From Methanocellales archaeon (lineage in GTDB: Archaea > Halobacteriota > JAWCLZ01): a stretch of DNA of 64,000 nucleotides. Positions 3 through 57,631 of this stretch are shown piece after piece (position 1 is the stretch's first letter; each line of letters begins with the position of its first letter). The translations under genes were made by a program, and so were the position numbers. Where the stretch lies: assembly GCA_038850275.1 (NCBI GenBank), contig JAWCLZ010000002.1, positions 38,993 through 102,992 of the forward strand, in the 5' to 3' direction. The notes beneath the pieces are model-generated. The model searched no databases. It was not told where the DNA came from and saw nothing but the letters and a program-made list of their open reading frames with translations.

Positions 3-890
3 AAAGAAATTGCAAAGATTGGCCCTCGCAATGTATTGATTAAAGGGGGGCATCTAGCTAGCGAGATGGTTGTTGATGTCCTCTATGATGGTAAAGAATA
101 TACTTATTTCAAAGCCCCGAGGATTAAAACTAAAAATCTACATGGCACTGGCTGCACATTCTCAGCGAGCATAACAGCTTACTTAGCAAGGGGATGCAGC
201 GTTAAAGAAGCAGTTGAATTTAGCAAGCGATTCATGGAGAAAGCAATCAAGTATAGCTTCAACGTTGGCAAGGGAAGCGGTCCAGTGAATCCAATGGCAA
301 ATTTATACTATGAAGCAGCGAAGCAAAAAGCAATTGAGGATGTGCAGGATGCAGTGAAAATTGTGGAGCAAAGCGAGGCTCTCGCAATGCTTATCCCAGA
401 AGTGGGTATGAATATAGTTTCAGTGCCTGAATATAGTATACATGGAAATGAAGTTGTAGGCGTGGAGGGAAGATTAACCTCTGTTTTAGGTAGACCGAGG
501 TCTCGTGGGTTTGCAAAACCAGGGGCTTCCAAGCACGTTGCTAGTGCAGCTCTAGAGATTTATAAAAGAAATCCTAGTTATAGAGCTGCCTTGAATTTGA
601 AATTCTCAGAGGAAGCTCTAGCTATATGCAGGGAAATGGGCTTGTTAATTTCAAGCTATGATCGAGGTAAAGAACCAGAGGAAATAAAGTGCAAAGAAGG
701 AATGAGCATCATATGGGGAGTAGAGCAAGCTCTTCTACAAACAAGTGGAAATATTCCAGATGTCATATATCATCGTGGAGACTGGGGTAAAGAACCAATG
801 ATAACTCTATTTGGCAAAAATGCTAAGGAAGTTGCTAAGCGAGCGGTGGAAATTGCTGAGAAAATAAGGGAAATGAAGTCATGGAAATGA
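3..890 (+). CDS. thiDN: Bifunctional ThiD/ThiN protein (phosphomethylpyrimidine kinase C-terminal part fused to ThiN thiamine-phosphate synthase domain); 5' end lies outside the window
   Basis: In-frame translation from nt 3 gives KEIAKIGPRNVLIKGGHL...HGTGCTFSASITAYLARG (ThiD C-terminal motifs), followed by ~180 aa ThiN-like domain; the ORF track only starts it at TTG 36. Confidence 0.7.
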   Translation, partial: KEIAKIGPRNVLIKGGHLASEMVVDVLYDGKEYTYFKAPRIKTKNLHGTGCTFSASITAYLARGCSVKEAVEFSKRFMEKAIKYSFNVGKGSGPVNPMANLYYEAAKQKAIEDVQDAVKIVEQSEALAMLIPEVGMNIVSVPEYSIHGNEVVGVEGRLTSVLGRPRSRGFAKPGASKHVASAALEIYKRNPSYRAALNLKFSEEALAICREMGLLISSYDRGKEPEEIKCKEGMSIIWGVEQALLQTSGNIPDVIYHRGDWGKEPMITLFGKNAKEVAKRAVEIAEKIREMKSWK

Positions 891-993
891 AGTCATGGAA
901 ATGAGTCGTGGACATAGAAATGAATCGTGGACATAGAAATGAATCGTGGACATAGAAATGAATCGTGGACATAGAAATGAATCATAGCCATCC
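870..993. repeat. Tandem repeat array: 2 x 14-bp (gaaatgaagtcatg), 1 x 19-bp variant, 3 x perfect 19-bp (gaaatgaatcgtggacata), 1 degenerate unit
   Basis: Read directly. It overlaps the thiDN stop codon and the convergent 3' intergenic region shared with corA. Confidence 0.9.
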
Positions 994-1950
994 AGCCCTG
1001 CGGAAATACCAAAGCATGGCTAAGGCTGGAATAGCTGATATAATAAGGAGAATTATAAGAGTGGTATATGGACCTAGAAAAGTCCAAGGTCCAGTTTCAA
1101 CCCCACCTGGTAGGGGTATGTTCATTCCATAGATTTGGGCTATCACTGTGGCTGGGATGGAAAGGGTGAAGAAAATAGTGAGAACAGCTAGTATTTTATT
1201 AGTCTTTTCCGTGCTTAACATAAAGTCGGTATCTTTATAGATTTCTATGATCTCTTTGCATTCATCTAAAGTTGCCCATACCTTGTCTATGTGATCCTCA
1301 ACATCACTAAAGTAAATGGAGAGGTCATCTTTAATGTAATGAGAAATTTCCCTAGACAATTCCTCAATAACACGTTTAAGTGGATAGGTAACTCGCCTTA
1401 AGCGAGCTATCCTCCGCCTTAAAATGGTTACTTCACGCACTGCTTCTACTTTTTCATCAAAAACTTTATCCTCAATATCGTCCAAGTCGCTTATAATCTT
1501 ATCTAAAATTGGGAACAATGAATCAACTAGTTGATCTATTATATAATACAAAAGATAGCCAGGTGACCTCAAAACCTCCGAGCGTGCTCTCTCATCGATT
1601 TTACACTTTTGAAATACTTCTGATAAAGGTTTTAAATCACTTGTTGAAATTGTGACTAAGTAGTTTTTCCCTAGGAAAATCGATAGCTGACTCGAGAACA
1701 TTCGTCCTTCAGCGCTGAAGGCAGGGAAGTGGAGTACAATGAATAAGTAATCTTCATATTTATCCACCTTAGGTAGCTGAACCTTTGAAATGCAATCATC
1801 TAATGCGAGGGAATGAAAGTGGTAGTTTTGAGCCAAAAAATTTATTTCCCTCTCAGTAGGTGCTTCTATATATACCCAGTTTAATTCCCCTTGGCTAAGA
1901 ATTTCCATTTCTCTCTCCTTATCTAACTTTGCTGATAAAATCTTTTTCAT
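982..1950 (-). CDS. corA: CorA family Mg2+/Co2+ transporter
   Basis: 322 aa; YGMN signature (IYGMNIPLPG) followed by two C-terminal TM helices; large N-terminal soluble domain. Confidence 0.85.
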   Translation of the reverse strand: MKKILSAKLDKEREMEILSQGELNWVYIEAPTEREINFLAQNYHFHSLALDDCISKVQLPKVDKYEDYLFIVLHFPAFSAEGRMFSSQLSIFLGKNYLVTISTSDLKPLSEVFQKCKIDERARSEVLRSPGYLLYYIIDQLVDSLFPILDKIISDLDDIEDKVFDEKVEAVREVTILRRRIARLRRVTYPLKRVIEELSREISHYIKDDLSIYFSDVEDHIDKVWATLDECKEIIEIYKDTDFMLSTEKTNKILAVLTIFFTLSIPATVIAQIYGMNIPLPGGVETGPWTFLGPYTTLIILLIISAIPALAMLWYFRRAGWL

Positions 1951-2495
1951 TTTCCTTGTCTCACGGCGTTGAATATATCTTGAATATCTTGACTATAATC
2001 GATTTTGCCAGGTGGATATGCTTTTTTACCTTCTATTACTTCCACTATGCAGCTCGCTACCTCCTCAGGGGTCTTATCCGTGGTGTCTATTTCATGTATA
2101 TTCTCAAGTCTATGGCGCTCGAGAGTTTCTATTAAAATTATATTAAGTGCTTCTGCCTCTACATTTTCATTTATCTTTTCCTCACTCCATTTTTTGACCT
2201 TTAAGCGTTTTCTAAGCAAGCTTGGCTTGGTTCTAAGTATTATTATCAAGTCTAAATCAAGGTGGTGAGCGAGATGTCCTTCAACTATATATCCCCCTTT
2301 TAATTCAGCAAAATATTTTTTAAGCCTAGGTATATCAACTATTAATGTATCGCGCTTCAAATCCCTTCCAATATAAAACTTTTTCCTCTTAATCAATGCA
2401 TTTAAGTCTATGATTTTGTAATTATATTTAGATTTCAGCACATTGCAAACTTGAGTTTTACCTGTTCCTGGGGTACCTGTTATGCCAATTCTCAT
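1947..2495 (-). CDS. Fap7/adenylate kinase isoenzyme 6-like P-loop NTPase
   Basis: 182 aa; MRIGITGTPGTGKT Walker A at the extreme N-terminus, typical of archaeal Fap7/AK6; 4-nt overlap with hisC. Confidence 0.6.
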   Translation of the reverse strand: MRIGITGTPGTGKTQVCNVLKSKYNYKIIDLNALIKRKKFYIGRDLKRDTLIVDIPRLKKYFAELKGGYIVEGHLAHHLDLDLIIILRTKPSLLRKRLKVKKWSEEKINENVEAEALNIILIETLERHRLENIHEIDTTDKTPEEVASCIVEVIEGKKAYPPGKIDYSQDIQDIFNAVRQGK

Positions 2496-3568: not shown

Positions 3569-4818
3569 GATTCAGCCTCCCTCTCCCTCTCCCTCTCTAT
3601 TTCCTCGCTGGTTACCCTAGCCACTTTCGCTAGCTGGCGCTTGGTTATCACTAGAGGTGGGAGGAATCTCAATATTCTCTCAGAAGTGCAGTTAATTAAA
3701 ACTCCCCTCTCTCTAGCTCGATTTATGATTCCACTGCCCTCTACATTTAACTCTATTCCTACCATGAGTCCCAGTCCTCTTATATCGCGTACCAAATTTG
3801 ATGTGCACTTCTCCCTGAGCAAGCCTATGAAATACCCCCCCTTCTCCTTAGCTTTCTCCACTAATCTATCTCTCTTAATTGCTTGAATCGTGGCTAGAGC
3901 TGCTGCGCATGCAAGGGGATTGCCCCCAAATGTCGAGGCGTGGTCGCCTTTTTCAAATTTAGAAGCAATTTCTTCCCTTGCTAGCATTGCTCCAATTGGG
4001 AAACCACTGCCAAGTGCTTTAGCAAGTGTTAATATATCTGGCTCAATGCCAAAGTGCTCATAAGCAAACCACTTGCCAGTGCGACCAAAGCCAGTTTGCA
4101 CTTCATCCAATATTAGTAGGACATTTTTTTCATCGCAAATTTCTCTAACTTGCTTGAGGTAGTCTTTATCTGGAACTATTACCCCTCCCTCTCCCTGCAC
4201 TGGTTCAAGTATAACTGCAGCTGTATCTTGAGTTATTGCACTTGAAATTGCTTCGGGATTATTGTATTTCACAAATTTTACGCATGGTATTAAAGGTTCA
4301 AATGGCTTGCGATATCTCTCTTTATGCGTTACACTTAAAGCACCCATAGTTCGCCCGTGGAAAGAGCCCTCGCAGGCGATGATTTCCTTTTTGCCAGTTG
4401 CTTTTCTAGCTAGCTTAAGAGCAGCTTCATTTGCTTCTGCACCGGAGTTTGCATAGAATACTCTATCAAGCTTAGTTAGTTCAACTAGAGCTTCAGCGAG
4501 TTTCACCTGCTCCTCAGTGTAGTAGATATTTGAAATGTGCATGAGTCTTTGTACTTGTAACTTAATTGCTTCAACCACGAGGTCGTGGCAGTGTCCAGTA
4601 CTGCAAACCGCTAATCCAGCGAAGCAGTCGAGGTATTCCCTGCCTTCAACATCCCAAACAAGCGCTCCCTTTCCACGTGCTATTACTAAAGGCTGCCTAG
4701 TATAGGTTTGCATTATGCATTTTGCTTCTCTTTCAATTATTTCTTTAGTTCTCTCAATTTTCTCTTTGGTTCTAATAAAATCAACTCCCTTAATCTCGAT
4801 ATGGAATTTCAATCTCAA
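3565..4818 (-). CDS. argD: Class III aminotransferase (acetylornithine/LysW-gamma-L-lysine aminotransferase ArgD/LysJ-like)
   Basis: 417 aa; LILDEVQTGFGRTG PLP motif; GSFHGRT. Confidence 0.75.
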   Translation of the reverse strand: MRLKFHIEIKGVDFIRTKEKIERTKEIIEREAKCIMQTYTRQPLVIARGKGALVWDVEGREYLDCFAGLAVCSTGHCHDLVVEAIKLQVQRLMHISNIYYTEEQVKLAEALVELTKLDRVFYANSGAEANEAALKLARKATGKKEIIACEGSFHGRTMGALSVTHKERYRKPFEPLIPCVKFVKYNNPEAISSAITQDTAAVILEPVQGEGGVIVPDKDYLKQVREICDEKNVLLILDEVQTGFGRTGKWFAYEHFGIEPDILTLAKALGSGFPIGAMLAREEIASKFEKGDHASTFGGNPLACAAALATIQAIKRDRLVEKAKEKGGYFIGLLREKCTSNLVRDIRGLGLMVGIELNVEGSGIINRARERGVLINCTSERILRFLPPLVITKRQLAKVARVTSEEIEREREREAES

Positions 4819-6605: not shown

Positions 6606-8545
6606 TACAGCAGCCAAATGCAATTCTCGGGAACTCAAGAATATTGGTAACCATCGGCTCCAGAGGAGAGCTTTTAGCTTTTTTTTATCCTCGCATTGAT
6701 TATGCTCAAAATATTGAAGAATCTCTGGCTGGGGTTTATTCTGAGGGGAGAATGCTATGGGTAAATGAGGAATGGGAATCAAGGCAAGTTTATTTAGAGG
6801 ATTTAAATATCCTTCATACCAATTTACATCACCCATTGGGAATTTACATAGAAATCGAGGATATGGTTCTCCCTGAGGGAGCTGTGTTGGTTAGGAGGTT
6901 TAAAATTTCTACATGCAGAAATTTGAAGGCGAAGTTCTTCTACTATTTAAATTTCACTATTGGTGAGCATAGAACTAAGAACTCTGGATTTTGCGATCCC
7001 TCTGGAATTATAATGCATTATTGGCAGAACATAAACATTGGCCTAGCGAGCAATCCCAGTTTTGAGGAGTGGCAGATTGGTAAAGCCATAGATACAGCTT
7101 GGTGGACAAATGCCAAGCTGGATTCAGAAGATGGCTTTCTTAGGGGAAATAGAGAGGAAATAGGCTATGTGAATGCAAGTGTAAGTTGGAAACTCGATTT
7201 AACGCCAGAATGCAAAATGGAAATAATATTATTTCTAGCGGCAGCGAGCAATCGCTTTAACTTGAAGAAGGAGATTCAAAGAATTAAGGAAATTCCATAT
7301 GAAGAATTACAGACTCAAACCAAGAATCATTGGCTTCAGTGGCTCTCGAGGGCTAGGGAACTTAAATTGAAGGAGTATCAATCCATTTATAAACGCTCAT
7401 TGCTTGTGCTCTCGCTATTAAGGGATAAACAATTTGGCAGCTTCATAGCTGCTCCTGAGTTTGACCATTTCTATGAAAAAAGCGGGGGATATGGTTATTG
7501 TTGGAATAGAGATGCCACGCATATGGCTCTTGCTCTTGATGCAGCTGGTTATATTGAAGCTGGCGAGGCCTTTGCAGCTTGGTGCAGAAAAATGCAGCTT
7601 GAAGATGGCTCTTGGTTTCAGAGGTATTGGGTAAATGGCGAGCTTGCACCAAGCTGGGGGAACTTTGATTTCTCAACTCAACTTGATCAAGTTGGCTGCA
7701 CCCTGCATTTTTACCTAGAGCACGCTAGATATCTTCCTGACAAGTTGGGATATTTTCAATCAATATGGAAAAGCGTAGAGAGAGGAGCTGAATATATAAT
7801 GAGGAGAACAGAAAGGGGATTGCATGATATCTGCGTTGATCTATGGGAGAGCCACTTTGGATCCTTCACTTATACCAATGCAGCTCTATATAGAGGACTA
7901 TTAAGCGCGGCTGAAATTGCAAGCGCAGTTGGAGAGAAAAACCTAGCTGAGAAATGGCGAGCGAGAGCGATGTTGATCAAGCAAGAGCTTTTAAATAAAT
8001 TCTGGCTAAAGGAGGGGTATTTTGCGAGGGGAATAATCAATGGAAAGTTGGATAAAACCTATGATGCAAGTTTCCTTGGACTGCTCGAGCCATTTGAATT
8101 GTTAGACTTGAGAAACAACGAGGAGCGATCCATGCTAGAACAAGCCATCCTTTTAATTGAAAAGAAACTCGGGATTTATGTGAATGAAGGAATTGGAATA
8201 AAGCGATTTGAGGGTGATGAATACATAGGAGGGAATCCTTGGACTATTACTACTCTTTGGTATGCAATTGTACTTCTAAAACTCGCTAGTTTTTACTTGA
8301 ATAGCGATCAAGACAAGGCAGATCACTATTTTAAAAAAGCAGTTGCATGTATGGAATGGTGCCAGCGAGGGAGCACTAGCACTGGGCTTCTACCTGAGCA
8401 AGTTGATCGCTTCACTGGCAAACCAACTTGGGCAACTCCAATTGGCTGGGCTCACGCTTTAGTCATCAAATGCCTTCTTTTAATGGAGGAATTAAAATTT
8501 AGAAAATTGGAAATTGGGAAATTAGAAATTAGAAATCAAAATTAA
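6602..8545 (+). CDS. Glycoside hydrolase family 15 (glucoamylase/glucodextranase/trehalase-like) with N-terminal beta-sandwich domain
   Basis: 647 aa; GYCWNRDATHMALAL (GH15 W-x-RD catalytic region); (alpha/alpha)6-barrel-like C-terminal half; C-terminus extended by a low-complexity repeat (KLEIGKLEIRNQN). Confidence 0.8.
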   Translation: MIQQPNAILGNSRILVTIGSRGELLAFFYPRIDYAQNIEESLAGVYSEGRMLWVNEEWESRQVYLEDLNILHTNLHHPLGIYIEIEDMVLPEGAVLVRRFKISTCRNLKAKFFYYLNFTIGEHRTKNSGFCDPSGIIMHYWQNINIGLASNPSFEEWQIGKAIDTAWWTNAKLDSEDGFLRGNREEIGYVNASVSWKLDLTPECKMEIILFLAAASNRFNLKKEIQRIKEIPYEELQTQTKNHWLQWLSRARELKLKEYQSIYKRSLLVLSLLRDKQFGSFIAAPEFDHFYEKSGGYGYCWNRDATHMALALDAAGYIEAGEAFAAWCRKMQLEDGSWFQRYWVNGELAPSWGNFDFSTQLDQVGCTLHFYLEHARYLPDKLGYFQSIWKSVERGAEYIMRRTERGLHDICVDLWESHFGSFTYTNAALYRGLLSAAEIASAVGEKNLAEKWRARAMLIKQELLNKFWLKEGYFARGIINGKLDKTYDASFLGLLEPFELLDLRNNEERSMLEQAILLIEKKLGIYVNEGIGIKRFEGDEYIGGNPWTITTLWYAIVLLKLASFYLNSDQDKADHYFKKAVACMEWCQRGSTSTGLLPEQVDRFTGKPTWATPIGWAHALVIKCLLLMEELKFRKLEIGKLEIRNQN

Positions 8546-8570
8546 AAATTAAAAATTAATTATTATCTAT
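8500..8570. repeat. Low-complexity gaaatt(g/a)g / aaaatt tandem repeats at the GH15 3' end
   Basis: Read directly: ggaaattgggaaattagaaattagaaatcaaaattaaaaattaaaaatt. Confidence 0.8.
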
Positions 8571-9817
8571 CGATGTCTTTGAATTACTTCTTCATAAACC
8601 CTTATGGTTTCTCTAGCGGTTTTTTCCCAAGTAAAGTTATCAAGCACCCTCGCTCTTGCATTTTCGCCCAAGATTTTTCTAGTTACATCGATCTTCAATA
8701 ATTCTATTGTAAATCTTGCGATATCATTTGGGTCATATGGATTTATATGCGCTCCACATCTATTTGTGCCACTTGGTATAACTTGTTCCCTCAACCCAGA
8801 GGTACCAGTTGCTCCCACTACCACTGGCTTAGCCATACTCATTGCTTCAGTGCATACAATTCCAAATGGCTCATATTTCGAGGGAAGAACAACTACATCG
8901 CTCGCTGCGTAGTGCAATATTCTTTCCTCCTCGCTTACATATTTAAATTCAAGCACCACGCGATTTTGAATACCCAAGCTTGAAACCATGTGCTTAATCA
9001 TATCCTCTTGATCGCCTCTGCCGAGGATGACGAGCTTTGCATTTGGCACTTCTTTTAAAATCAATGGCATGGCTTGAACTAGACTATCCGCTCCTTTAAC
9101 CCAAGTGAGGCGGCCTACAAAGAGAATCATAAGTTCTCCTTTCTCAATTCCAATTGCTTCTTTAAATTTTAAGATCTCTGCCTCTCCATATTTAGCTGGA
9201 TTATACTTCATAGGGTCAACGCCATTGTATATCACTCGAATTTTCTTTTCATCATAGCCAAGCCTCATTAGTTCATCCCGCATTGCATAGCTCACGGTTA
9301 TAATTAAATCTGCTTCATTAGCAGCAAGGCGCTCTATAGCTTTAATGGTTGGAGATCCATTCCAAGCTCTACCCTGCTCGGTGGAATGCAGGTGGAATAC
9401 AAATGGGAGCTTCAATGCTTTTCTCACGATCAATGCTCCAATTGCAGAAAGCCAGTCATTTGCTACAATTATATCAAAAGCTCGCTTTTCCTTTTTAACT
9501 AAGTCATTGAGGAGCTTTGTGGATGAGAGAAAATTATAGAGCATGGTCTCGCAAAATAGCTCCCTCGCTCCCTCTGACCATTTCTTCACATCCTCTGGAA
9601 TCATGAGGGGTAGTATATCAGTTGCATCCACTAATAAGGGTCTATGTACCTCTAAGCCTTGAGATCTATATACAGTTGGATCATCCCCAGTATTTCTCGA
9701 GAAAATAGTTAAATTATGCCCTGACTTTATGAATTGCTTAGACATCTCCATAGCATAAGTACCTAGCCCACCTCTGAAGTATGGCGGGAATTCATCTACG
9801 AAGTAAAGAATATTCAT
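8567..9817 (-). CDS. Family 4 glycosyltransferase (glycogen-synthase-like / GT4 retaining glycosyltransferase)
   Basis: 416 aa; N-terminal GGLGTY motif; C-terminal EPFGIVCTEAMSMAKPVV (GT-B E-x7-E region). Confidence 0.75.
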   Translation of the reverse strand: MNILYFVDEFPPYFRGGLGTYAMEMSKQFIKSGHNLTIFSRNTGDDPTVYRSQGLEVHRPLLVDATDILPLMIPEDVKKWSEGARELFCETMLYNFLSSTKLLNDLVKKEKRAFDIIVANDWLSAIGALIVRKALKLPFVFHLHSTEQGRAWNGSPTIKAIERLAANEADLIITVSYAMRDELMRLGYDEKKIRVIYNGVDPMKYNPAKYGEAEILKFKEAIGIEKGELMILFVGRLTWVKGADSLVQAMPLILKEVPNAKLVILGRGDQEDMIKHMVSSLGIQNRVVLEFKYVSEEERILHYAASDVVVLPSKYEPFGIVCTEAMSMAKPVVVGATGTSGLREQVIPSGTNRCGAHINPYDPNDIARFTIELLKIDVTRKILGENARARVLDNFTWEKTARETIRVYEEVIQRHR

Positions 9818-10875: not shown

Positions 10876-11620
10876 TTCTAGGAGCTATGAGATAGCTCAC
10901 TGAGCCATTGCCATTTGCTATTTCAAAATCGAATTTAACTGGATAGTCCTTGCCTAGATAAATTGTTACCTCCTTTGCCTTAGCAATTGCTTTGCTCACA
11001 TCGCTTAAGTAATCCAAGGAAAAGAGAGAGCGTACATCCCCAGCGCTGGTGAGGCTTATTAGCTTGTCCCTTGAGATTTCAAGGCGAACTTTATCAGTAT
11101 CCCCCTCTGCCTCCATGTAGAAGATATCGCCTTTCACGCCAAGTGCCATGTGGTCTCCAATTTTCTCACTTGCCTTCACTGCTCTGCGAAGCTCACTACC
11201 ATCAACCACTATTCTCGCAGGTAGTTCTAAATTTGGCACCTTTGGTTCTTTCCTAATTGTAGAGGGATCAAGCAATGAAAGGGTGTAGATAAGCCCACCT
11301 ATTTTTATTTTAAGCTTGTGAGCAACCTCATCGAGCTCAAGTTCCACTAAATCACCCTTATTAGCCATTCCAAGTATATCCCCAAGCTTGATGAGATCAA
11401 TTCCAATCTCGCCCTCCGTGCTTTCATATGATGCAAAAGCTTGAGGGCTTAAGCTAAAAGACACCATAGCGACATTCGCGGGATCTACAGCTCTTAATGA
11501 AATTCCATCCTTGCTTAGTTTAAATTTGGCTTCATCAACAAGCGTGGCAATTGCCTCGATTGAGTCCTTCAAAATATCTGCTTCAATAACAGCTTTGAAC
11601 ATCTTTCTCCTCTCCATCAA
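10862..11620 (-). CDS. pcn: DNA polymerase sliding clamp PCNA
   Basis: 252 aa; MFKAV... N-terminus and the length and two-domain layout typical of archaeal PCNA. Confidence 0.8.
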   Translation of the reverse strand: MMERRKMFKAVIEADILKDSIEAIATLVDEAKFKLSKDGISLRAVDPANVAMVSFSLSPQAFASYESTEGEIGIDLIKLGDILGMANKGDLVELELDEVAHKLKIKIGGLIYTLSLLDPSTIRKEPKVPNLELPARIVVDGSELRRAVKASEKIGDHMALGVKGDIFYMEAEGDTDKVRLEISRDKLISLTSAGDVRSLFSLDYLSDVSKAIAKAKEVTIYLGKDYPVKFDFEIANGNGSVSYLIAPRIETD

Positions 11621-11697
11621 TCGAAATCAAAATACAATAGACAGATGCTAAGTTATATTTTTCGCTTGCTTATTATTCCTTAATTATATCCGCTTTT

Positions 11698-41458: not shown

Positions 41459-41653
41459 TGCTTTCCTCCATACCTCATTTGTATTCCCTTTATATATCTT
41501 ATATATATCTCTATATCTATATCTCTATCCCCACTGGCATTTATAAAGCCTTTGAGGGTTTAAATAAGCTTCGCTGATGAATTCTTTGGGTAAAACAAAA
41601 AATTTAAACTAATGGAATTATATATAACTTGAGAAAACTGGAGCGTTATATGA

Positions 41654-45245: not shown

Positions 45246-45271
45246 TTTATTGATAGGTTTTAAGCTTTAAT

Positions 45272-46890: not shown

Positions 46891-48204
46891 ATGATTAGCG
46901 TGCGCGAGGAAGTTAAAAAGCAACTTTCTTATATATCACTTGGCTTTTCAGCACTCGCGATTCCCTTTCTTGAACCTTGGCAGATTATATTCGCAATTGC
47001 TATCATTACCATCTTAATCATATACATTCCACCTAGAACTAGGTTTTTCACAGCAATAGCTCGAGAGATAGATTTAAAAGCGGGTTTTTTAATCAATGCA
47101 ACGCGTTATAGCCTCTCATTTCTCATCCTAGCGATTCTTGTTTTGATAAACTTCCCCTTGTATTTACTTAGTGCTACAATTGCAATCGTTGCATTTGGAG
47201 ATGGATTAGCTACCGTAGCTGGCTTGGTAGGAGATTTAAAGCAGGAGAAAACTCTTAGAGGTAGCCTTACCTTTTTAATCTTAGGAAGCATAGCTGCATA
47301 TCTATCTTGCTCTTGGTATATACATTGGAGAGCTACTCAAGTATCTCTTGAATCCATATTCTTCTTAGCTGTAGTAGGAAGCGCAGTTGGAGCTTTGATA
47401 GAAGCTGTTTCCACTCAAACTAACCAAGGTTTAACAGTTCCAATTGGTAGCGCTATGGCAATGTGGTTTTTTTCAACCTTGAATTACTCAGTCTCCCCTA
47501 TTTATTTGCTACTTGCGCTATCATTAACGCTTTCAATTGGCATTGCATCTTATAAATCAAATATAGCTGATTTAAGCGGCGTGTTAAGCGGCACGCTTTT
47601 GGGCATGCTGATAATCATATTCACCGATCTACGTTGGTTTCTAGTTCTCCTAGCTTTTTTAATCCTTGGGTCTGGGTTCACCAAGTATAAATATGCCTAC
47701 AAGCTCTCCATAGGCGTGGCTCAGAGCAAGGGAGGTGCTAGGGGGGCGAGTAATGTCTTTGGCAATGGATTATCTGCCTTGTTTTTTGCAATTGCATATG
47801 GTGTTTATAAACAGGAGTTATTCCTATATGCCTTTTTAGGGGCAATATCAACTGCCACTGGTGATACACTAGCGAGTGAAATTGGAGGAACAAGTAAAAA
47901 ACTCCCTGTTTTAATTACTAATTTAAAGCCAGTGCCCCATGGTACAAGTGGGGGGATAACCCTACTTGGCGAGCTTGCTTGCGCACTTGGAGCTGCTTCG
48001 ATTGGGATGTTAGCTATAGCCTTGGCAATGGGTAGTGATTTAGAGCTATTGATATTCACTTTAATAAGTGGAATAGCCGGTGCTAATATAGATAGCTTGC
48101 TTGGAGCCACTCTTGAGAAAAAATATCTCTCGAACTCGATGACAAATCTAGCTGCCACTTTCTTTGGAGGATTAACCTCAGCTACCTTCTTCCTCCTCCT
48201 TTGA
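46891..48204 (+). CDS. Polytopic membrane protein (>=10 TM); C-terminal half DUF92/COG1836-like
   Basis: 437 aa; very hydrophobic; SKGGARGASNVFGNG region resembles DUF92; starts 35 nt from the cis-PT-like gene in divergent orientation. Confidence 0.4.
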   Translation: MISVREEVKKQLSYISLGFSALAIPFLEPWQIIFAIAIITILIIYIPPRTRFFTAIAREIDLKAGFLINATRYSLSFLILAILVLINFPLYLLSATIAIVAFGDGLATVAGLVGDLKQEKTLRGSLTFLILGSIAAYLSCSWYIHWRATQVSLESIFFLAVVGSAVGALIEAVSTQTNQGLTVPIGSAMAMWFFSTLNYSVSPIYLLLALSLTLSIGIASYKSNIADLSGVLSGTLLGMLIIIFTDLRWFLVLLAFLILGSGFTKYKYAYKLSIGVAQSKGGARGASNVFGNGLSALFFAIAYGVYKQELFLYAFLGAISTATGDTLASEIGGTSKKLPVLITNLKPVPHGTSGGITLLGELACALGAASIGMLAIALAMGSDLELLIFTLISGIAGANIDSLLGATLEKKYLSNSMTNLAATFFGGLTSATFFLLL

Positions 48205-50244: not shown

Positions 50245-50319
50245 GGGGCAGTGGGGTAGCCTGGTCTATCCTCGAGCCTTTGGGAGGCTTGGACCGCAGT
50301 TCAAATCTGCGCTGCCCCA
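50245..50319 (+). tRNA. tRNA-Pro (anticodon UGG), no encoded CCA
   Basis: Manual fold: acceptor GGGGCAG/CTGCCCC, D-loop AGCCTGGTCTA, anticodon stem GAGCC/GGCTT with loop TTTGGGA (U33, UGG, G37), T-arm CGCAG-TTCAAAT-CTGCG, discriminator A. Confidence 0.8.
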
Positions 50320-50457
50320 TTTTTGATAATTCAATTTTAATTTTAATTTCAAAATTAAATTTTAATTTTTTAAAATGATGATATTATGATGAGTTTATTA
50401 TCAATTTTGATATTGTGATAACAAAATTTATTTTATAAAAATTAGATTTTATTTATA

Positions 50458-51597
50458 ATGATTGCAGATGCAAAAGCTCAGTTGAGCATGGACTTCCTAG
50501 GTGGATTTGTAATACTCTTCTTCAGTTTAGTAACAGTTTTAATATTTCTACCAACTTTATTCAGCACTCTTCAAAACCCAAGCATAGATCTCCACCCAGT
50601 GGCATATAGAACAAGTGTATTACTCGCAGAAGACCCAGGTTGGTGGAGCAATATCACAGTTGGCGAGCAAGGCTACAACTGGGAAGATCACTTGAACTAT
50701 ACTAGTAGAATTGGCCTTGCAAGCGTTAAATATGGAAAGGGAGATGCATGTATATTGGATAGAAATAAAACTCTAGCGCTTCTCACTCTATATAATAAAT
50801 CGGATTCCACAAGCTATGGAAAAATTCAAGATCTCTTGGGCTTGAAAAGCTCAACGCGAAAATACGACTACAATATAACATTCAAAATCCTGCCATCGGG
50901 AGCGATATGGAAAATTAAGCGGAATGAAAGCGGAGTATATAAAGAATATAATATGACATTTGGCAGAGAAATACCAAACTCTGGCAATGTGGAGAAAGTG
51001 GTGCGCATATTAAGAATTTATAAAGGATTTTACCCTGAATACATGCCATACATAGTCCCAGGTATAAACCCAGAGGAGAGGTGGTATCCAAACTGGCCAG
51101 ATGGATATTATCCCTTTGATGATATAAATGACGATGACAAAGGACAGTTTGACCACCCGCTCTTACTGAGCTATCCACTGGGGTATTTCAAGATATATAA
51201 TTTCGGCAGAGAGCCAAGTGCTACAGCTGTAGACGATCTCGACCTATATGTAACAACTGATCTCACTCAAACTGAAAATCGTTTATTGCACGCGAATCCC
51301 AACCTCGTGGTTTCTTGGAACAACAACACCGGCTGGAGCGGGCCATATTGGAATGGCACTGATTGGAGCATAGACCCAGGTACTGGTTTGAAGTCACGCA
51401 ATTTCGAAGAAGAAATCAATAGCAAACTTGAAGACCTAAATGCTAGCGATGGACAGCTATTTTTGCTTTCAATTAAATATCACAATGCACAAGGAGATGT
51501 CTCTGCACCCAATGCAGTGACTTGGCTTGAAGATCCTTGGCTGCCAACGGGAGAAGACATTCGTGGATTATTCAAACTGGAGGTATGCATATGGTAA
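50458..51597 (+). CDS. Class-III-signal (type IV pilin-like) secreted protein, gene A of the pilin/adhesin operon
   Basis: 379 aa; N-terminus MIADAKAQLSMDFLGGFVILFFSLVTVLIF fits the archaeal prepilin Q-x-S-x-[ED]-F-L + hydrophobic helix pattern; many N-glycosylation sequons; W/Y/D-rich ectodomain. Confidence 0.5.
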   Translation: MIADAKAQLSMDFLGGFVILFFSLVTVLIFLPTLFSTLQNPSIDLHPVAYRTSVLLAEDPGWWSNITVGEQGYNWEDHLNYTSRIGLASVKYGKGDACILDRNKTLALLTLYNKSDSTSYGKIQDLLGLKSSTRKYDYNITFKILPSGAIWKIKRNESGVYKEYNMTFGREIPNSGNVEKVVRILRIYKGFYPEYMPYIVPGINPEERWYPNWPDGYYPFDDINDDDKGQFDHPLLLSYPLGYFKIYNFGREPSATAVDDLDLYVTTDLTQTENRLLHANPNLVVSWNNNTGWSGPYWNGTDWSIDPGTGLKSRNFEEEINSKLEDLNASDGQLFLLSIKYHNAQGDVSAPNAVTWLEDPWLPTGEDIRGLFKLEVCIW

Positions 51598-52187
51598 AAA
51601 GCGAAGCACAGGTTTTCACCCTCGAGGGCTTGGGCGCGGCTGTGATAATAATGCTTGCATTATACTTCATGCTTCAATCCCCAGTTATCTTCACCCCTCC
51701 AACTGCGCAGCATTTAAATGTTCAACTTTCCCAACTCGGTAGAGATGCACTTCTAGCGCTTGATATAGAAGTGCCTAGCAATAGTACTCTTGCTAATTAT
51801 ACTTTGAAGAGCTATTTAAAAGCAATTAATAAAAGCGACCTTAAGATTCCAACTCAAATGAGAAAAGACCTATGCTCTCTTCTCCCGAGGAATGTGATGT
51901 TTAACGTGGTTTTAAGCTATGTTAATTTAAGCGGGGTAAACATAAGCGAGGGGAATTATACCATGCTAAATATCACCACTCTTATCTTAAATTCTGATAA
52001 TACTACTGAATTCATAACCAATCTCACGCCTCCTCAGGATTCCACAACTGCTAGCCATTTAGTAGTGCTCTACGATAGCGAGCTTAGCGAGGACTCGCCA
52101 TTCAAAGTAAATGCAACTGAAATGGGAACTGAGCCTGAGAGAATACCCCACGTTATAGAGGTGAGACTTGAGCTATGGTATGTTTAA
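51585..52187 (+). CDS. Class-III-signal pilin-like protein, gene B
   Basis: Start MHMVKSEAQVFTLEGLGAAVIIMLALYFML; ~11 sequons in ~200 aa; overlaps gene A by 13 nt. Confidence 0.5.
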   Translation: MHMVKSEAQVFTLEGLGAAVIIMLALYFMLQSPVIFTPPTAQHLNVQLSQLGRDALLALDIEVPSNSTLANYTLKSYLKAINKSDLKIPTQMRKDLCSLLPRNVMFNVVLSYVNLSGVNISEGNYTMLNITTLILNSDNTTEFITNLTPPQDSTTASHLVVLYDSELSEDSPFKVNATEMGTEPERIPHVIEVRLELWYV

Positions 52188-52600
52188 GAAATGAAGAAGG
52201 GCAGATCATAATATTATTTGGATTTTTAATAGCAGCTAGCTTAATCGTATTAGCTGTGCTTTTAAATACTGTGCTATTCTCAGGCCAGCAGGCAGTCGTT
52301 GGGGAGTTTACCTTCCCTAAATATGAGATACAGGATATAAGGCTTCAAACTCTAGAGCAAGCTAAAATTGCGGCAAATCGCTCGGAGTTTAAAAATGAAA
52401 CTATATTTAATGAGATAATTGAGCTATATAGTAAGCAAATCCTAGCATTATATAGCGAGAGGGGTGCTTATGCTTTAGTCACAATTAAGCCTGTGAAGAG
52501 TGGAGAGAATATAACTTGGGCTCAAGTCAAGGTAATCTACAACGATATGTATACTGATTACAAAAGTGTGGATGTGATCTATGATTTAAAGGGGGAATAA
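52175..52600 (+). CDS. Class-III-signal pilin-like protein, gene C
   Basis: 141 aa; RNEEGQIIILFGFLIAASLIVLAVLL (KGQ-type prepilin cleavage context + hydrophobic helix); overlaps gene B by 13 nt. Confidence 0.5.
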   Translation: MVCLRNEEGQIIILFGFLIAASLIVLAVLLNTVLFSGQQAVVGEFTFPKYEIQDIRLQTLEQAKIAANRSEFKNETIFNEIIELYSKQILALYSERGAYALVTIKPVKSGENITWAQVKVIYNDMYTDYKSVDVIYDLKGE

Positions 52601-52607
52601 TTGGAAT

Positions 52608-55600
52608 ATGAATAAAATGAAGAAGAATATGAATAGTAATACTAAGTGGAATAAATTTGTTAATAATACTCAAGCGGTAACTCCAACCTATGAATATATA
52701 ATACTCATTGGAATTTTAATCGTCTATATCACTCTCTTCCTCACTATTTACGCTGATGAATTTGGAATAGCACCTTTGAGAATCGCAATGCAAACGCAGT
52801 TCGAGGATATTGGCAATGATATTAGCTCAAAAGTCGTGGATATGTATATAATTGCACCTGAATCAGGCTATTTAAAAACCAAATTCTACATGCCTCAAGC
52901 AGTTGGTAAATATGAATATAAAGTTGAATTCAAAGAAATAGGACTTGACCAGCAAATTTTGGTTTCAGCGCTGAGGTTTGAGAAAGAAGTAATGATCACT
53001 TTAAATAAAATAGGCTCAAGCTTAGGACTAACTGGCTCTACTTATAGTTCCACTCCTGAGCACTGGCTTATCTATAGCATGAGCTCGCAATATGATCTAA
53101 CTCCAATTGCAGTTGCATATCCAAGGGAAGTCTCTTATAACCTCACTTCTGGGTGGAGTGATATAGTTGTTTTCGATGGAAGTGATTCAAAAGGTATAGG
53201 CGAGCTTCAATATAAATGGGACTTCAATGGCGATGGAATTGTAGACGCGACTAATGCAACTGAATATTATCAATACTCAGCTCCAGGTGTTTACAATGCA
53301 ACTTTAACAATCTATGATCCAATTTTAGATAGAGAAGCTTCAACAACTGTTCAAGTAAATGTTACCACTAGTTATATCGAGCCATCCATAGATGCCTATA
53401 AATATGTATCTCCAAGGAGCTTTGGAGTGGGTAAACCAAGTTATACAACTATAGTGCTCTATGGCAAGGGAATACCTCAAAATGAATCCCATATTGATGT
53501 AATGCAAGTGATAGATGTCTCAGGAAGTATGGATCCAGATTGGCTAAAGATAGCTGGCGGTGATCCAGAAACAGGCTACACTCCATTCTCAAATAAGAGT
53601 ATAAAGGGAACCGCTGGAAGCAAGATCTGGACTGAGAGCTTTAGTTTAACAAGCGCTGCTAATGAAACAATTGAAAAACTTCACGTTGAACTCTGGAATG
53701 TAAGCGGGAGTAATAATGTTGATCTCTACGTCAAGCCCCCAGGTGGAATTGCTGAGAGAGCGCAGACTATAACTCCTTGGTATGAGCGCTATGAAAAAGC
53801 AAATCCACCCTTAGGTAGCTATACCATCTACGTACTTGGAGACTTCCCAGTTGGGAGCCAGTCGTTTAAAGTGAATGTAAACAAGACCTCAAAGATTAGT
53901 ATAAGTGGAGCTGTGGATACCTACACTTGGAGCAATACCACTTATAATTTGAACGTGGCTAAGTGGATGGAGACATATATAACTTGGCCCACTAGCTCAG
54001 TCGATCTAAATCTATATTTAACCGACCCGAGCTCAGCAACTTATGCTCCAACTTCAGCAAATCTCTCTTCGCCCTCTCGCAATTGGGAGCGAATTTATCT
54101 CACTAATATAAAAGCTGGGGACTGGACAGTTGCAGTTTACAACAATGGGTCTTACCCCACTTATAATGTTACAATTCAAGCTTGGTGCATCGAAGAAAAC
54201 AAGGATCCCAAAGTGGATATAACCATGGATGGCTCTTCAACTGGTAAAAAAACCCCACATACCTTCACAGGTTTAACAGGCACTCATACCTTCACTGTGC
54301 CCAGCAGCGATTCAAAAGGACATCAATTTTGGAAGTGGAATGAAACTGGCTCTACAAGTAGAACGATAAGTGTGAGTTCAAGTGGAACTTATACCGCTGT
54401 ATATCGCCAGCCTCCACCTACCCCTACACCAACACCAACTTTCACAATTTCAAATCCAGGAGAGCAGACTGTGTATCGAGGCAGCTCGAAATCAATAAGT
54501 ATAACGGTAACAAGTTATTATGGCTATAACAAAGAGGTTAGTTTAAACGCTAGCGGAATGCCAAGTGGCACTACAATTACCTTCACTCCCGATAAAAAAA
54601 CGCCCACATTTAGCTCTACAATGACTATAAATGTGAGCGCGAGTACGCCAACTGGAAATTATCCAATAACAATCATTGGCACTGGGAGCGATGGATTAGT
54701 TAAAACTCAAACATTCACATTATATATACCTGATTTCTCAATAAGTGCTTCTCCCTCTTCGGGGAGTGTTAAAACCACGGGCGGGAGCACCAATTATACC
54801 ATTACCTTAACCTCGCTATATAAATTCGCAGGCAGCATCTCGCTCTCAATCTCAGGATTGCCAGCAGGTGCTAGTGCCACATTCAGCCCTAATCCAGTTA
54901 GCCTATCAGCTGGGCAAACTAAGACCTCAACCCTCACTGTTTCAGTGCCCCCTGGAACTCCAGTTGGAGATTATACCTTAACCATAACTGGCATAAGTGG
55001 AAGCCTCAGCCATTCAACAAGCGTAACTCTTAAAGTCATAATACCCCCACCTGGCTTGCTCTACTGGCTAGCTAGACTATATGAAATCTCACTCCCAAGT
55101 CCATGGATCAGCGCTAGAGCTGCTCCAGGTGTAGAGAGCTTCACTGGATATATACGCCTTGGCGAAACTCCAGTAACAAACTTTAGCGGCAATATAACTG
55201 CAAGCGAGCCGCCTAGGTGGGATAATACTGAGAGTCCAATCTTGATTAATGAATCCATTGAGAACTTCAAGATAAGTTTGAATTACTACGATGAATATGG
55301 GAATGAAAGTTTGCACTTCTGGGTAAGTAAAAATGGCGCTCCTCCAGTGCTAGTAGCTGGATTAATGGGTGAGTACTATGACAACATGGATTTAACCAAT
55401 TTGAAATTAACTAGACTAGACCCAGTGGTAGACTTCAACTGGGGCTCAGGCTCACCACATTCTTCAATTGAAGCTGATACCTTCTCAGTTAGATGGACTG
55501 GCTATGTTAAAGTGGATAGGTCTGAGACTTATACATTTTATGTAGTTACAGACGATGGAAGTAGGGTATGGGTTGATGATACGCTTATCATCGATTCTTG

Positions 55601-56792
55601 GATTAATCAATCAACGACTGAGCGCAGTGGAAGTATTTATCTCGCTGAGGGCTGGCATAAGATAAAATATGAATATTATGAGAACACTGGAAGTGCAACT
55701 GCTAGATTGCTATATTCCTCTCCAAGCACGCCTAAACAAGTTATACCGCAGGATCACCTGAGCCCAGTTAATATGAAGGGCAATGTATGCATAAATTATA
55801 CTGAGACAAATGTAATTGCACCTGCTACTTACACTATTTATATAACTGGAACTTTCCTCAGCGGTACAAAGGATTTTGAACTGCAAACCTATATGGCTAA
55901 ACTAGATGCAGCTAGGATAAGTGGTAAAACCTTTGAGGATATGTTGAATAGCTCTTCAGATAAATCTGGATTAGTTTCATTTGGTGGCAATGCAACTATT
56001 ATTAACCAATCAGATGTGAGGTTGATTCAAAGTCTAACTTATAGCCATAGCCTTGTTAAAGCTGGCTTCGATTTATTAGAGGCGCATAATGGCACGCCAG
56101 TGGGTGAAGCCATCTATGTTGCAGTTCAAGAGCTAAATAATTCCTCGGAGTTCTTCACTGAGAATGATCGCACTCGAGTGCCTGTGATAATCTTGCTCTC
56201 AGATGGACTGCCAACCCTCCCAGCAACCCTTGAGGAGATCTCTGAAAATAATTATACTCGAGCTATTCAATATGCCCTTGAGCAGGCTAATATTGCGAAG
56301 AGCATGGGTATTTTGATCTATGCAATTGGATTTGGAGTTGATGCTGACATGAATTTCCTCGCTAACATCTCAAGTGGCGAGGGCTTTTACTTCTTCGCTG
56401 CTACTAAAGAAGAGCTTCAAGCGATTTATCTGCAAATAGTTAAGGAACTTAGGGAATATGCTGGTAGAAATGTAGTGATCACTGATGTAGTGCCAGCTGG
56501 TATAAATGTAGTAAGCGCACCAGGAGCGAGTGAGATAATTAATAATGATGATGGAACTACAACTATTATCTGGAGAGTAGGTGGAGTTAAAATTTATAGA
56601 CATGGTCAAACACCACTGGTGAGGAGATTGGTGATATCAACTATGAGCACTGGTTCCACTAATGCCAATGTATATGGTCTCTCCAATGTTACTTATACCA
56701 ATGTTATCACAGGTGATCTAACCACTTTTGTATTTCCTGAGACGAATATCTACGTTAAACCAGTTGGCAGTGGACAGATGAGTATGGAGTGA
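52608..56792 (+). CDS. Giant (1394 aa) surface adhesin with pilin-like N-terminal TM segment, MIDAS motif, PPC-like beta-sandwich repeats, TP-linker, PA14 domain and vWA domain
   Basis: N-terminus ...TQAVTPTYEYIILIGILIVYITLFL is pilin-like. DVSGSMD is a MIDAS D-x-S-x-S motif at aa ~302. VDLYV / VDLNLYLT are PPC-type motifs. PPPTPTPTPT is a linker. The PA14 domain (aa ~917-1040) contains GEYYDNMDL...FSVRWTGYVK...YTFYVVTDDGSRVWVDD...GWHKIKYEYYE. The vWA C-terminal half (aa ~1100-1290) contains GNATI...NGTPVGEAI...ILLSDGLPT...ILIYAIGFG. Confidence 0.7.
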   Translation: MNKMKKNMNSNTKWNKFVNNTQAVTPTYEYIILIGILIVYITLFLTIYADEFGIAPLRIAMQTQFEDIGNDISSKVVDMYIIAPESGYLKTKFYMPQAVGKYEYKVEFKEIGLDQQILVSALRFEKEVMITLNKIGSSLGLTGSTYSSTPEHWLIYSMSSQYDLTPIAVAYPREVSYNLTSGWSDIVVFDGSDSKGIGELQYKWDFNGDGIVDATNATEYYQYSAPGVYNATLTIYDPILDREASTTVQVNVTTSYIEPSIDAYKYVSPRSFGVGKPSYTTIVLYGKGIPQNESHIDVMQVIDVSGSMDPDWLKIAGGDPETGYTPFSNKSIKGTAGSKIWTESFSLTSAANETIEKLHVELWNVSGSNNVDLYVKPPGGIAERAQTITPWYERYEKANPPLGSYTIYVLGDFPVGSQSFKVNVNKTSKISISGAVDTYTWSNTTYNLNVAKWMETYITWPTSSVDLNLYLTDPSSATYAPTSANLSSPSRNWERIYLTNIKAGDWTVAVYNNGSYPTYNVTIQAWCIEENKDPKVDITMDGSSTGKKTPHTFTGLTGTHTFTVPSSDSKGHQFWKWNETGSTSRTISVSSSGTYTAVYRQPPPTPTPTPTFTISNPGEQTVYRGSSKSISITVTSYYGYNKEVSLNASGMPSGTTITFTPDKKTPTFSSTMTINVSASTPTGNYPITIIGTGSDGLVKTQTFTLYIPDFSISASPSSGSVKTTGGSTNYTITLTSLYKFAGSISLSISGLPAGASATFSPNPVSLSAGQTKTSTLTVSVPPGTPVGDYTLTITGISGSLSHSTSVTLKVIIPPPGLLYWLARLYEISLPSPWISARAAPGVESFTGYIRLGETPVTNFSGNITASEPPRWDNTESPILINESIENFKISLNYYDEYGNESLHFWVSKNGAPPVLVAGLMGEYYDNMDLTNLKLTRLDPVVDFNWGSGSPHSSIEADTFSVRWTGYVKVDRSETYTFYVVTDDGSRVWVDDTLIIDSWINQSTTERSGSIYLAEGWHKIKYEYYENTGSATARLLYSSPSTPKQVIPQDHLSPVNMKGNVCINYTETNVIAPATYTIYITGTFLSGTKDFELQTYMAKLDAARISGKTFEDMLNSSSDKSGLVSFGGNATIINQSDVRLIQSLTYSHSLVKAGFDLLEAHNGTPVGEAIYVAVQELNNSSEFFTENDRTRVPVIILLSDGLPTLPATLEEISENNYTRAIQYALEQANIAKSMGILIYAIGFGVDADMNFLANISSGEGFYFFAATKEELQAIYLQIVKELREYAGRNVVITDVVPAGINVVSAPGASEIINNDDGTTTIIWRVGGVKIYRHGQTPLVRRLVISTMSTGSTNANVYGLSNVTYTNVITGDLTTFVFPETNIYVKPVGSGQMSME

Positions 56793-56796
56793 TGAG

Positions 56797-57588
56797 ATGC
56801 TAAACTCAAGAGAAGCAGTATCAGAAGTAGTTGGATATATGTTGATCTTCACCATAGTGGTGCTCTCCATAGGATTGATGTATGTCTATGGCTATCCCAT
56901 TTTAGAGGACCTTCAAAATAGAATTCGCTTTCAAAACGCTGAGCAGGGATTTGCAACTCTACAGGCTGATTTAGATAGAGTGGTATTTGACCAAGCACCT
57001 ATTAAGACCACGAGGATAAACACAGGTGGGGGATCCATTCAAGCTGCTTCCTCAGGGGATAGAATTAACATAGTGGTTAACATTAGCGGGGAGAAGAAAT
57101 ATGAAGTTACAAGGGAACTTGGAATCGTGGAATATCGCCACTTGGGGAAGAGAATTGCCTATATAGATGGCGGGGTATTCATAAAAGAGGGCGAGCGCTC
57201 TTATCTTCGAATTCCACCTAAGATCTATGTTTACAATGACACTGAGACCTCTAATCTAACAGTTATAATCTCAATTTTCTCGATATACTGCAAATATCCC
57301 ACGATGGGTGGGGGCGAGAGGGTATCAGTGTTGAGTAAATTTAATAGGTCGAGCACGAGTGCTTATATCAATCAAAGCTTTAACTCTAGCTTGAGCAATG
57401 TAACCATAGTTATAAATAGTAGTTTATACGCTGATGCTTGGGAAATGCACTTTAGCAATCTCAAAGAGCGGGCATACGTTGGGATAGAGGTCACGAGGTT
57501 GAATTCCACTCACGTGAGAGCAGTAATTCCATTCAATAGAGTGGTCATCGCTGAGAATAAAGCTGATGTAGAGGTATTCTCTAGTTAA
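56797..57588 (+). CDS. Type IV pilin-like protein (DUF1628-like N-terminal domain), gene E
   Basis: 263 aa; MLNSREAVSEVVGYMLIFTIVVLSIGLMYV closely resembles the haloarchaeal/euryarchaeal pilin consensus R-A-V-S-E-V-I-G-V + hydrophobic helix; starts 5 nt after the adhesin stop. Confidence 0.55.
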   Translation: MLNSREAVSEVVGYMLIFTIVVLSIGLMYVYGYPILEDLQNRIRFQNAEQGFATLQADLDRVVFDQAPIKTTRINTGGGSIQAASSGDRINIVVNISGEKKYEVTRELGIVEYRHLGKRIAYIDGGVFIKEGERSYLRIPPKIYVYNDTETSNLTVIISIFSIYCKYPTMGGGERVSVLSKFNRSSTSAYINQSFNSSLSNVTIVINSSLYADAWEMHFSNLKERAYVGIEVTRLNSTHVRAVIPFNRVVIAENKADVEVFSS

Positions 57589-57595
57589 TTTATTT

Positions 57596-57631
57596 GATGA
57601 AGCTCTCTAGTTAATGAAGCTCTCTAGATTC
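57596..57631. repeat. 18-bp direct duplication of a start-codon region (atgaagctctctagtt / atgaagctctctagat)
   Basis: Read directly; the first copy encodes MKLSS* and the second is the start of the radical SAM gene. Confidence 0.8.

Follow-up and report, generated by a model that had tools for sequence, protein, structure and literature searches.

The window analysed here is a stretch of 64,000 nucleotides (nt) of a contig from a Methanocellales archaeon (JAWCLZ010000002.1, positions 38,993 to 102,992), and this report concerns the short tandem arrays that lie at its gene boundaries. About 95% of the window is taken up by open reading frames (ORFs), and both strands are coding. We mapped the longest ORFs, a deliberately generous procedure by which non-ORF DNA amounted to 5.1% and the median spacer to 11 nt, and assigned genes via Pfam (ThiD/ThiN, CorA, GH15, GT4, Ham1, RIO/Bud32-like kinase, radical SAM [AmmeMemoRadiSam], GluRS, ACD). 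The encoded housekeeping proteins include GluRS, PurF, L37e, LSm, PriL, RPA, TIM, and FBPase, among others, and the synteny of the window is shared with the chromosomes of related metagenome-assembled genomes (MAGs). By its gene content and synteny, the window belongs to a cellular chromosome.

A first-pass annotation of the sequence had listed six loci with tandem duplications at start or stop codons. All six are present where that annotation placed them, and the peptides it quoted were confirmed by translation. The unit in the amrS/gltX spacer, given there as 26 bp, was found as two perfect 27-nt copies 42 nt apart, and the duplication at the radical SAM gene start, given as 18 bp, measures 17 bp. 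Together with at least nine more, the window holds at least 15 arrays (Table 1).

Table 1. Tandem arrays of the window, with the result of the scan with Tandem Repeats Finder (TRF) or other basis of detection, and the genes that they adjoin.
Position	Strand	Array	Detection	Location and features
869-983	.	14-bp x3.2 (GGAAATGAAGTCAT) then 19-bp x4.7 (CATAGAAATGAATCGTGGA), compound	TRF scores 74, 166	Entire 91-nt spacer of convergent thiDN (stop 888-890) and CorA (stop 982-984); 97% matches, perfect runs 869-904 and 906-983; both units similar to the stop-stop junction ...AAATGAATCATAG
4729-4773	-	21-bp x2.1 in-frame repeat (RTKEKIE/RTKEIIE)	TRF score 62	N-terminal end of class III aminotransferase ORF (Pfam), 17 nt past the stop of the upstream gene
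8490-8559	.	Degenerate AT-rich array, 7/13/20-bp periods	TRF scores 45-64	Spans GH15 stop (8543-8545), ends 8 nt short of convergent GT4 stop; encodes the tail KLEIGKLEIRNQN*
9824-9866	-	Degenerate 22-bp x2 repeat	TRF score 56	Last ~17 codons (K/E-rich tail) of primase large subunit PriL; 7-10 nt from ATGA overlap with GT4
22539-22590	-	12-bp x4.3 array	TRF score 69; translation reads LNKTLNKTLNKPSNKPSK	bud32-like kinase stop (TAA) and a Ham1 TTG start present in every unit (TTGAATAAA)
24247-24315	.	Two perfect 27-nt copies, 42-nt period, and a third partial copy GCGAAAACA	Repeat family D12, 100% identity	amrS/gltX divergent spacer; duplicates part of a block conserved upstream of amrS
32551-32589	+	20-bp x2 repeat	TRF score 57	Begins 2 nt past the stop of a GTPase gene, upstream of folE2
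33569-33598		Weak 12-bp x2.5 array (AAATTAAATAAA)	TRF score 39, sub-threshold boundary array	Fills the 26-nt spacer between the convergent stops of folE2 and the next gene
35184-35227	.	16-bp x2.9 array (AATATTCCTAATGAGA)	TRF score 68; first 2.1 copies perfect	Spacer downstream of ACD alpha-subunit gene
35238-35269	-	14-bp x2.3 repeat	TRF score 50	ACD stop (35250-35252) at the junction between the two copies
37864-37893	.	Perfect 13-bp x2 duplication	TRF score 53, perfect run	Divergent spacer, RPA-like gene/NTP-transferase gene
39556-39577	.	Perfect 11-bp x2 duplication	TRF and perfect-run scan	Includes purF stop (39574-39576)
41491-41528	.	TATATC/14-bp array	TRF score 55	Upstream of LSm and L37e genes, TATA-like region of divergent spacer
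45239-45288	.	25-bp x2 duplication, 96% identical	TRF score 93; repeat family D17	Contains the stops of both convergent genes, DUF5788 (45243-45245) and Usp (45272-45274); the unit holds TAG and, on the other strand, TAA
46121-46153	.	15-17-bp x2.1 repeat	TRF score 52	Spacer between Usp start and prenyltransferase stop
57597-57630	+	17-bp duplication (ATGAAGCTCTCTAG) of radical SAM gene start	Sequence, translation; below TRF threshold	First copy reads MKLSS*; its TAA overlaps the real ATG at 57614 (TAATG)

For counting, arrays were called by TRF at a score of at least 50 and a period of at least 10, without overlaps. The window contained 12 such arrays, whereas 200 block shuffles with preserved local composition averaged 0.41-0.50 and never exceeded 3. 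Nine of the 12 touch a spacer or a gene end, where 1.03 would be expected, and with a margin of 15 nt this rises to 11 (1.47 expected, binomial p ~1e-9). As a control, we used loci totalling 1.15 Mb from ~80 other archaeal genomes, which included many hot-spring MAGs. Array density was 18.8 per 100 kb in the window versus 2.9 in the control (Poisson p ~6e-7), and 8 of the 33 control arrays lay at boundaries, with 5-6 expected. Perfect duplications of at least 10 bp were likewise found at boundaries in six out of six cases in the window, at 9.4 per 100 kb versus 1.2 in other archaea. Every array of the window is 115 bp or shorter, and ~11% of its non-ORF bases lie in arrays. A shared motif or a mobile element behind the arrays was ruled out, since no 8-mers are common to them beyond chance and the window holds no dispersed repeat families. 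CRISPR arrays were also rejected: the copies are contiguous, and only those between amrS and gltX have 15 intervening nt, which are themselves a partial copy.

We subsequently compared the window with its relatives, among them MAGs designated Methanocellales archaeon that belong to the same uncultured clade. The relatives share 92% (L086, from Logan run SRR32459164), 90% (L089), 87% (L090 and L091, from two JGI metagenomes; L090: JGI 3300043569), 86% (L087) and 79% identity (L088) with the window, and two further genomes, L001 and L002, ~80% at the nucleotide level. A metagenome scan with PurF gave one useful relative fragment (L083). The window has 0.16 boundary arrays per gene junction and other archaea have 0.007, a ~23-fold difference. 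Five relatives with 80-92% protein identity were examined in the same way; values between 0.06 and 0.25 were obtained for four of them, and none was found in the 10-kb L089 sequence. Relatives at 72-79% had only 0-0.02. Overall, the same-clade relatives showed ~10 times the density per junction of other archaea, while other MAGs from the same hot-spring studies were without an array excess. The high density of tandem duplications is therefore a trait of this lineage and not of archaea generally. We found no description in the literature of boundary-enriched tandem duplications in a cellular archaeon.

The array-bearing junctions differ between these genomes. Next to Ham1, 4.3 copies of the 12-bp unit in the window correspond to ~2.7 diverged copies in L086 and to one copy in L087, where a single TTGAATAA stop/start overlap represents the ancestral state. 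The kinase terminus of L088 carries an unrelated hexamer repeat (ACCGAG/ACTGAG/ACGGAG, 6820-6860) that encodes a TETETE tail. At the convergent Usp/DUF5788 junction, we found 25 bp x2 in the window, 30 bp x6 in L090 and L091, and one copy in L089 and L095. If one copy is removed from the window, the two stops lie 1 nt apart, and both proteins end as in the relatives. Copy-number variation among relatives, which the first-pass annotation had considered, is thus evident at both junctions. In the spacer between the RPA-like and NTP-transferase genes, L089 has exactly one copy, with a clean alignment gap of 13 nt. Compared to L089, the purF stop of the window carries a 19-nt insertion of local copies, and a separate 12-bp x2 repeat occupies this stop in L089. 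Upstream of LSm, the window contains an insertion of 15 nt made of local copies, and the length rises stepwise from L083 to L089 to the window. The copies between amrS and gltX are restricted to the window; they are missing in L086, L087, and L088, whose spacers are shorter. No array was present in L087 at the junction orthologous to that behind the GTPase gene, or in L095 at the one between Usp and the prenyltransferase gene.

The thiDN gene is truncated by the start of the window, and its product ends by translation in ...REMKSWK*. A genome scan with thiDN showed that the nearest species is only ~80% identical and that synteny is gone past CorA. The compound array at this junction is missing in both L001 and L002, but the CorA stop of L002 bears a separate 14-bp x2.1 array. 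Different arrays at the same place were found at thiDN/CorA (L002), at the purF stop (L089) and at the PriL tail, where L090 carries a different 9-bp repeat in the same position. Over 60 comparisons of orthologous junctions, an array was present in both genomes in 5 cases, only in the window in 8, only in the relative in 2, and in neither in 45. This co-occurrence is significant (Fisher p=0.004; 0.013 without the one shared array). A comparison of the lengths of orthologous spacers with and without arrays (Mann-Whitney p=0.36) is too noisy to be informative because of ambiguous ORF starts. The arrays also differ in their state of preservation: some copies are perfect, and in the weakest TRF rows the matches fall to 72-83%.

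Copy number also varies within one population, represented by L090-L094 (>99% identical, five samples), in which we counted 3 or 4 copies of an 18-bp unit and 2 or 1 copies of a 7-bp unit. Three contigs from different samples of this one species (L092, L093, L094) terminate within the 30-bp x6 array after Usp, and the L094 contig begins inside the 18-bp array. Such contig ends show that arrays disturb assembly, and the window itself comes from a MAG, so that the repeats could be artefacts of short-read metagenome assembly, as the first-pass annotation had also considered. Assemblers usually collapse tandem repeats, however, and seldom create them. Moreover, same-junction arrays are found in assemblies made independently, by different pipelines and from different samples (Logan for L086; JGI for L090 and L091), the copies differ by substitutions, the arrays of the window are at their length probably spanned by one or two short reads, and the excess is missing in other MAGs of the same studies. 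We therefore regard an assembly artefact as very improbable. As an additional observation in this population, the 18-bp array lies in an ORF and an 11-bp x~9 array lies in the divergent spacer upstream of Usp (L090, 5032-5087 and 5477-5572; L092, 6531-6608); gene calls around both arrays vary between samples.

Taken together, the data show that the arrays are real and clade-specific, concentrate at boundaries, have a sequence of their own at each locus, arose recently, recur, and vary in copy number. The first-pass annotation had placed them exactly at gene termini. This position results largely from the median spacer of only 11 nt; what stands is a real excess of arrays that contain whole stop codons (see below). 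We enumerated all possible duplications of the observed sizes and found that 6.5% of the positions are protein-neutral. The boundary pattern can be attributed to this small proportion in a genome this compact. Periods divisible by 3 were found only for the 21-bp and the 12-bp unit, and both arrays lie within ORF calls; for the aminotransferase repeat, a multiple of 3 is what is expected of an array within an ORF. Of the remaining 13 arrays, 12 fall in spacers or span terminal codons; the exception is the degenerate 22-bp repeat in the PriL tail. The duplications have left the ends of Usp, DUF5788, and CorA unaltered.

The genes flanking the arrays (thiDN, CorA, GH15, GT4, PriL, Ham1, GluRS, ACD, PurF, LSm, Usp, and others) do not belong to an environment-facing class. 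Contingency loci typically consist of many copies of a 1-7-nt unit, located in ORFs or between promoter elements, and are associated with surface, restriction, or virulence genes. The arrays resemble them in being tandem repeats with high-frequency copy-number change, some of them in promoters or 5' ends, and phase variation had been suggested by the first-pass annotation. In line with this, copy number varies in a relative population, and the arrays at Ham1, amrS/gltX, and the radical SAM gene start touch coding ends or promoters. But the units of the window are 11-42 nt long, not microsatellite-like, and present in few copies, and most arrays lie past the stops of housekeeping genes or between convergent ones, where copy number cannot switch expression. 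Footprints of excised mobile elements, another earlier suggestion, would be target-site duplications. Transposon footprints have a fixed length per element family and exactly two copies. The arrays share with them the short direct duplication without flanking microhomology. Their lengths are not constant, though (11-42 bp), many have more than two copies (up to 4.7 in the window and 6 in a relative), and we found neither terminal inverted repeats, element remnants, nor shared ends, nor dispersed copies. Phase-variable loci, for most of the arrays, and transposon footprints alike are therefore hardly credible explanations.

The arrays are an ordinary class of mutation at an unusual, clade-specific density. 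They are likely caused by slippage-type tandem duplication and contraction that occur at a high rate throughout the clade, with purifying selection as a filter. Slippage hotspots were among the proposals of the first-pass annotation and gave the best fit, given the unique units, the young arrays with their unstable copy number, and the recurrence at the same junctions in relatives. A copying error in replication or repair would yield young, unstable, minisatellite-like duplications at an unusually high rate. Inside a gene, almost any such duplication would shift the frame or insert residues and be lost, while one in a spacer, or one that includes a whole stop or start codon, would spare the proteins; where a whole terminal codon is duplicated, one copy would remain as the intact gene end and the other would become spacer. 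Survivors would therefore be located at gene ends. Once two copies are present, expansion and contraction would be easy, which would account for arrays that reach 3-6 units and for the differences seen among relatives. The 3' ends, above all those of convergent pairs, would be the most permissive sites, and arrays there would make most of the spacer DNA.

Local head-to-tail copying, gain and loss of whole units, and decay of older arrays were all seen. In these respects, the arrays resemble variable-number tandem repeats generated by slippage, which also arise by local head-to-tail duplication, change by whole units, differ in copy number between close relatives, and decay by substitution. That archaeal PolB and PolD slip in vitro (PMC4134008) makes slippage plausible. 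The archaeal assays used direct repeats that flank hairpins (PMC4134008), whereas most units of the window have no hairpin potential evident by eye. We infer that the molecular step is slippage or template switching and that most of the arrays are neutral.

Several results weigh against the slippage account. First, the five perfect two-copy duplications, a small sample, have only 0-2 nt of flanking microhomology. This is a poor fit to classic slipped mispairing, which uses pre-existing direct repeats, and other routes are conceivable; speculatively, unprocessed flaps might be ligated, staggered breaks might be filled in, or an enzyme might act. Second, the density is 10-20 times that of other archaea, again unlike classic slippage, and the account gives no reason why this clade should have so many more arrays. 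Third, a second pair of populations (L096/L097), from the same species as L090-L094, differs over 20.9 kb by 48 single-nucleotide polymorphisms and only 3 tiny indels. The instability is thus local and not global. We had considered tandem-repeat indels as the dominant type of variation, which fits the 1-kb region of L090-L094 but is contradicted by the 20.9-kb pair, and this claim was dropped. Fourth, arrays with a whole stop codon amount to 6/14 in the window (p=0.04) and 13/26 in the clade (p=5e-4), compared with ~20% under a model of uniform input and protein neutrality. This may mean that 3' ends tolerate duplications far better than 5' spacers do, that they are a hotspot, or that positive selection acts on them. 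In the simplest reading, 3' flanks are the least constrained DNA, since the short 5' spacers are full of promoter.

Positive selection would mean that the arrays are functional spacers or regulatory elements that separate abutting or overlapping genes. They could provide room for termination between convergent genes, or they could influence how promoters are spaced or where translation starts, for which the MKLSS* mini-ORF, the repeated TTG starts, and the duplicated TATA-like region would be candidates. The excess of arrays containing stop codons is consistent with this, as is the independent occurrence of arrays at the same junctions in different genomes. The sizes of the convergent spacers point in the same direction. 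The longest arrays were found at convergent junctions (115, 70, and 50 nt in the window; 178 nt in L090), whereas array-free convergent pairs abut or overlap (gaps 1, 1, -4, -17, -23, and 8 nt). Of the five convergent spacers longer than 20 nt, three consist of arrays, and a fourth contains the weak array behind folE2. Other results do not agree with selected spacers. Unit sequences are not conserved among relatives, the arrays have no motif in common, and close relatives keep single-copy states at the same junctions. Furthermore, arrays were found at 3/12 convergent, 3/11 divergent, and ~9/45 co-directional junctions (array counts by hand tally), so that a preference for one type of junction was ruled out; only array length is greater at convergent junctions. 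According to a rough estimate, the recurrence would be close to chance if about half of the junctions tolerate insertions. Selection for the arrays is therefore unlikely to be the general explanation. Independent of this question, the convergent pairs at 20105-20107, 31101-31103, 39201-39204, 43548-43564, and 48182-48204 have a 1-nt gap or an overlap of 4-23 nt, which illustrates extreme streamlining.

The closest analogue of the arrays is the tandem repeats of Borgs, extrachromosomal elements of Methanoperedens with tandem direct repeats (Schoelmerich et al. 2023, PMC9879509). As in Borgs, each locus has its own unit, of similar size (~10-30 nt), and arrays lie in spacers or start inside gene ends. 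Spacer units are mostly not divisible by 3 and ORF units are, with the 22-bp repeat of the PriL tail as the exception here. Likewise, arrays are absent or different in close relatives, vary in copy number within populations, and cause assembly errors. The proportion of sequence in arrays is of the same order (~0.9-1.1% in the window with loose TRF settings; 0.3-1.0% in Borgs, for perfect arrays of at least three units), although the two values were measured differently. By the Borg criterion (perfect, at least three units, at least 50 nt), the Borgs considered from Table 1 of PMC11208441 have 3.8-6.9 regions per 100 kb. In the 64 kb of the window, only the run 906-983 (19 bp x4.1, perfect) qualifies, and most arrays have 2-3 copies with 80-96% matches. 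Arrays inside ORFs that encode amino acid repeats, about half of all Borg repeats, are nearly absent here. Finally, the arrays of the window lie on a cellular chromosome and not on a giant linear element, and the hosts of Borgs were reported to be nearly devoid of such repeats (PMC9879509; PMC11208441).

The resemblance raises the question of a dedicated process as in Borgs, in which an enzyme would copy and paste units of 11-30 bp bluntly, seeded in A-rich DNA at gene ends. The unique units, their position at gene ends and in spacers, the divisibility by 3, the rapid turnover, and the variation within populations would all be in agreement with it. The same applies to the partial copies that flank arrays and to the near absence of microhomology at two-copy duplications. 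We also observed a weak trend towards A on the sense strand, where Borg repeats are enriched in adenine, with a mean A content per unit of 0.43 versus 0.36 in array-free spacers (n=16 arrays, p=0.06; length-weighted 0.45 versus 0.38). This bias is not significant, however, only one array of the window matches the Borg definition, and the arrays sit among housekeeping genes on both strands of a cellular chromosome. We saw no candidate enzyme, and the same features follow from frequent slippage. Such a process in the strict Borg-like form is thus quite improbable. The related idea of a cellular archaeal clade with active, possibly enzyme-mediated blunt copying of 11-30-bp units, with a preference for gene 3' ends and as the main source of new spacers, is doubtful as well. 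If true, blunt copying would separate abutting convergent genes and sometimes rewire promoters or start sites, and comparative genomics of the clade and Borgs could reveal the machinery that forms the repeats.

The arrays show how an archaeal chromosome that is ~95% coding gains noncoding DNA, namely by tandem copies of gene ends at no cost to the proteins, and the longer convergent spacers are mostly derived from them. They are a cellular counterpart to the tandem repeats of Borgs, and the 10-20-fold, clade-specific excess suggests a heritable difference in replication or repair. In practical terms, arrays break metagenome assemblies and are potential strain markers. They also shift the called starts and ends of genes, as seen for the tails of thiDN and GH15, the N terminus of Ham1, and the decoy mini-ORF in front of the radical SAM gene.

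Some further features of the window were noted. The duplicated radical SAM gene start lies directly downstream of a cluster (50458-57588) that contains a 1394-aa ORF and the gene for a DUF7289 protein. The orthologous cluster has genes for DUF7287, DUF7288, and DUF7289 in L091, L092, and L099, and its genes probably serve a pilus-like or surface structure. The only tRNA of the window, tRNA-Pro(TGG) at 50245-50319, is followed after 14 nt by an (AATTTT)x6 array (50333-50369), which could be a T-rich terminator or a further product of slippage. A scan of the window gave no match to Rfam families. This includes the longest stretch devoid of an ORF of at least 70 aa (28922-29336, 415 nt), which contains only ORFs of 31-48 aa. 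Its upstream neighbour is a 144-aa ORF whose L087 ortholog by position is a NUDIX protein, and for the ORF on the other side, the neighbourhood in L087 suggests a PAS-type sensor. The small gene for ribosomal protein L37e (41000-41240), downstream of LSm, falls below the 70-aa minimum of the ORF list and is kept in L083 and L089. Lastly, gene order differs between the window and L090 (87% identity). In L090, the APS kinase gene adjoins the GT4, PriL, and PCNA genes (9091-11976), whereas in the window the same genes (8567-10875) are located ~32 kb away from the APS kinase gene (42207-42746), indicating a rearrangement within the clade.

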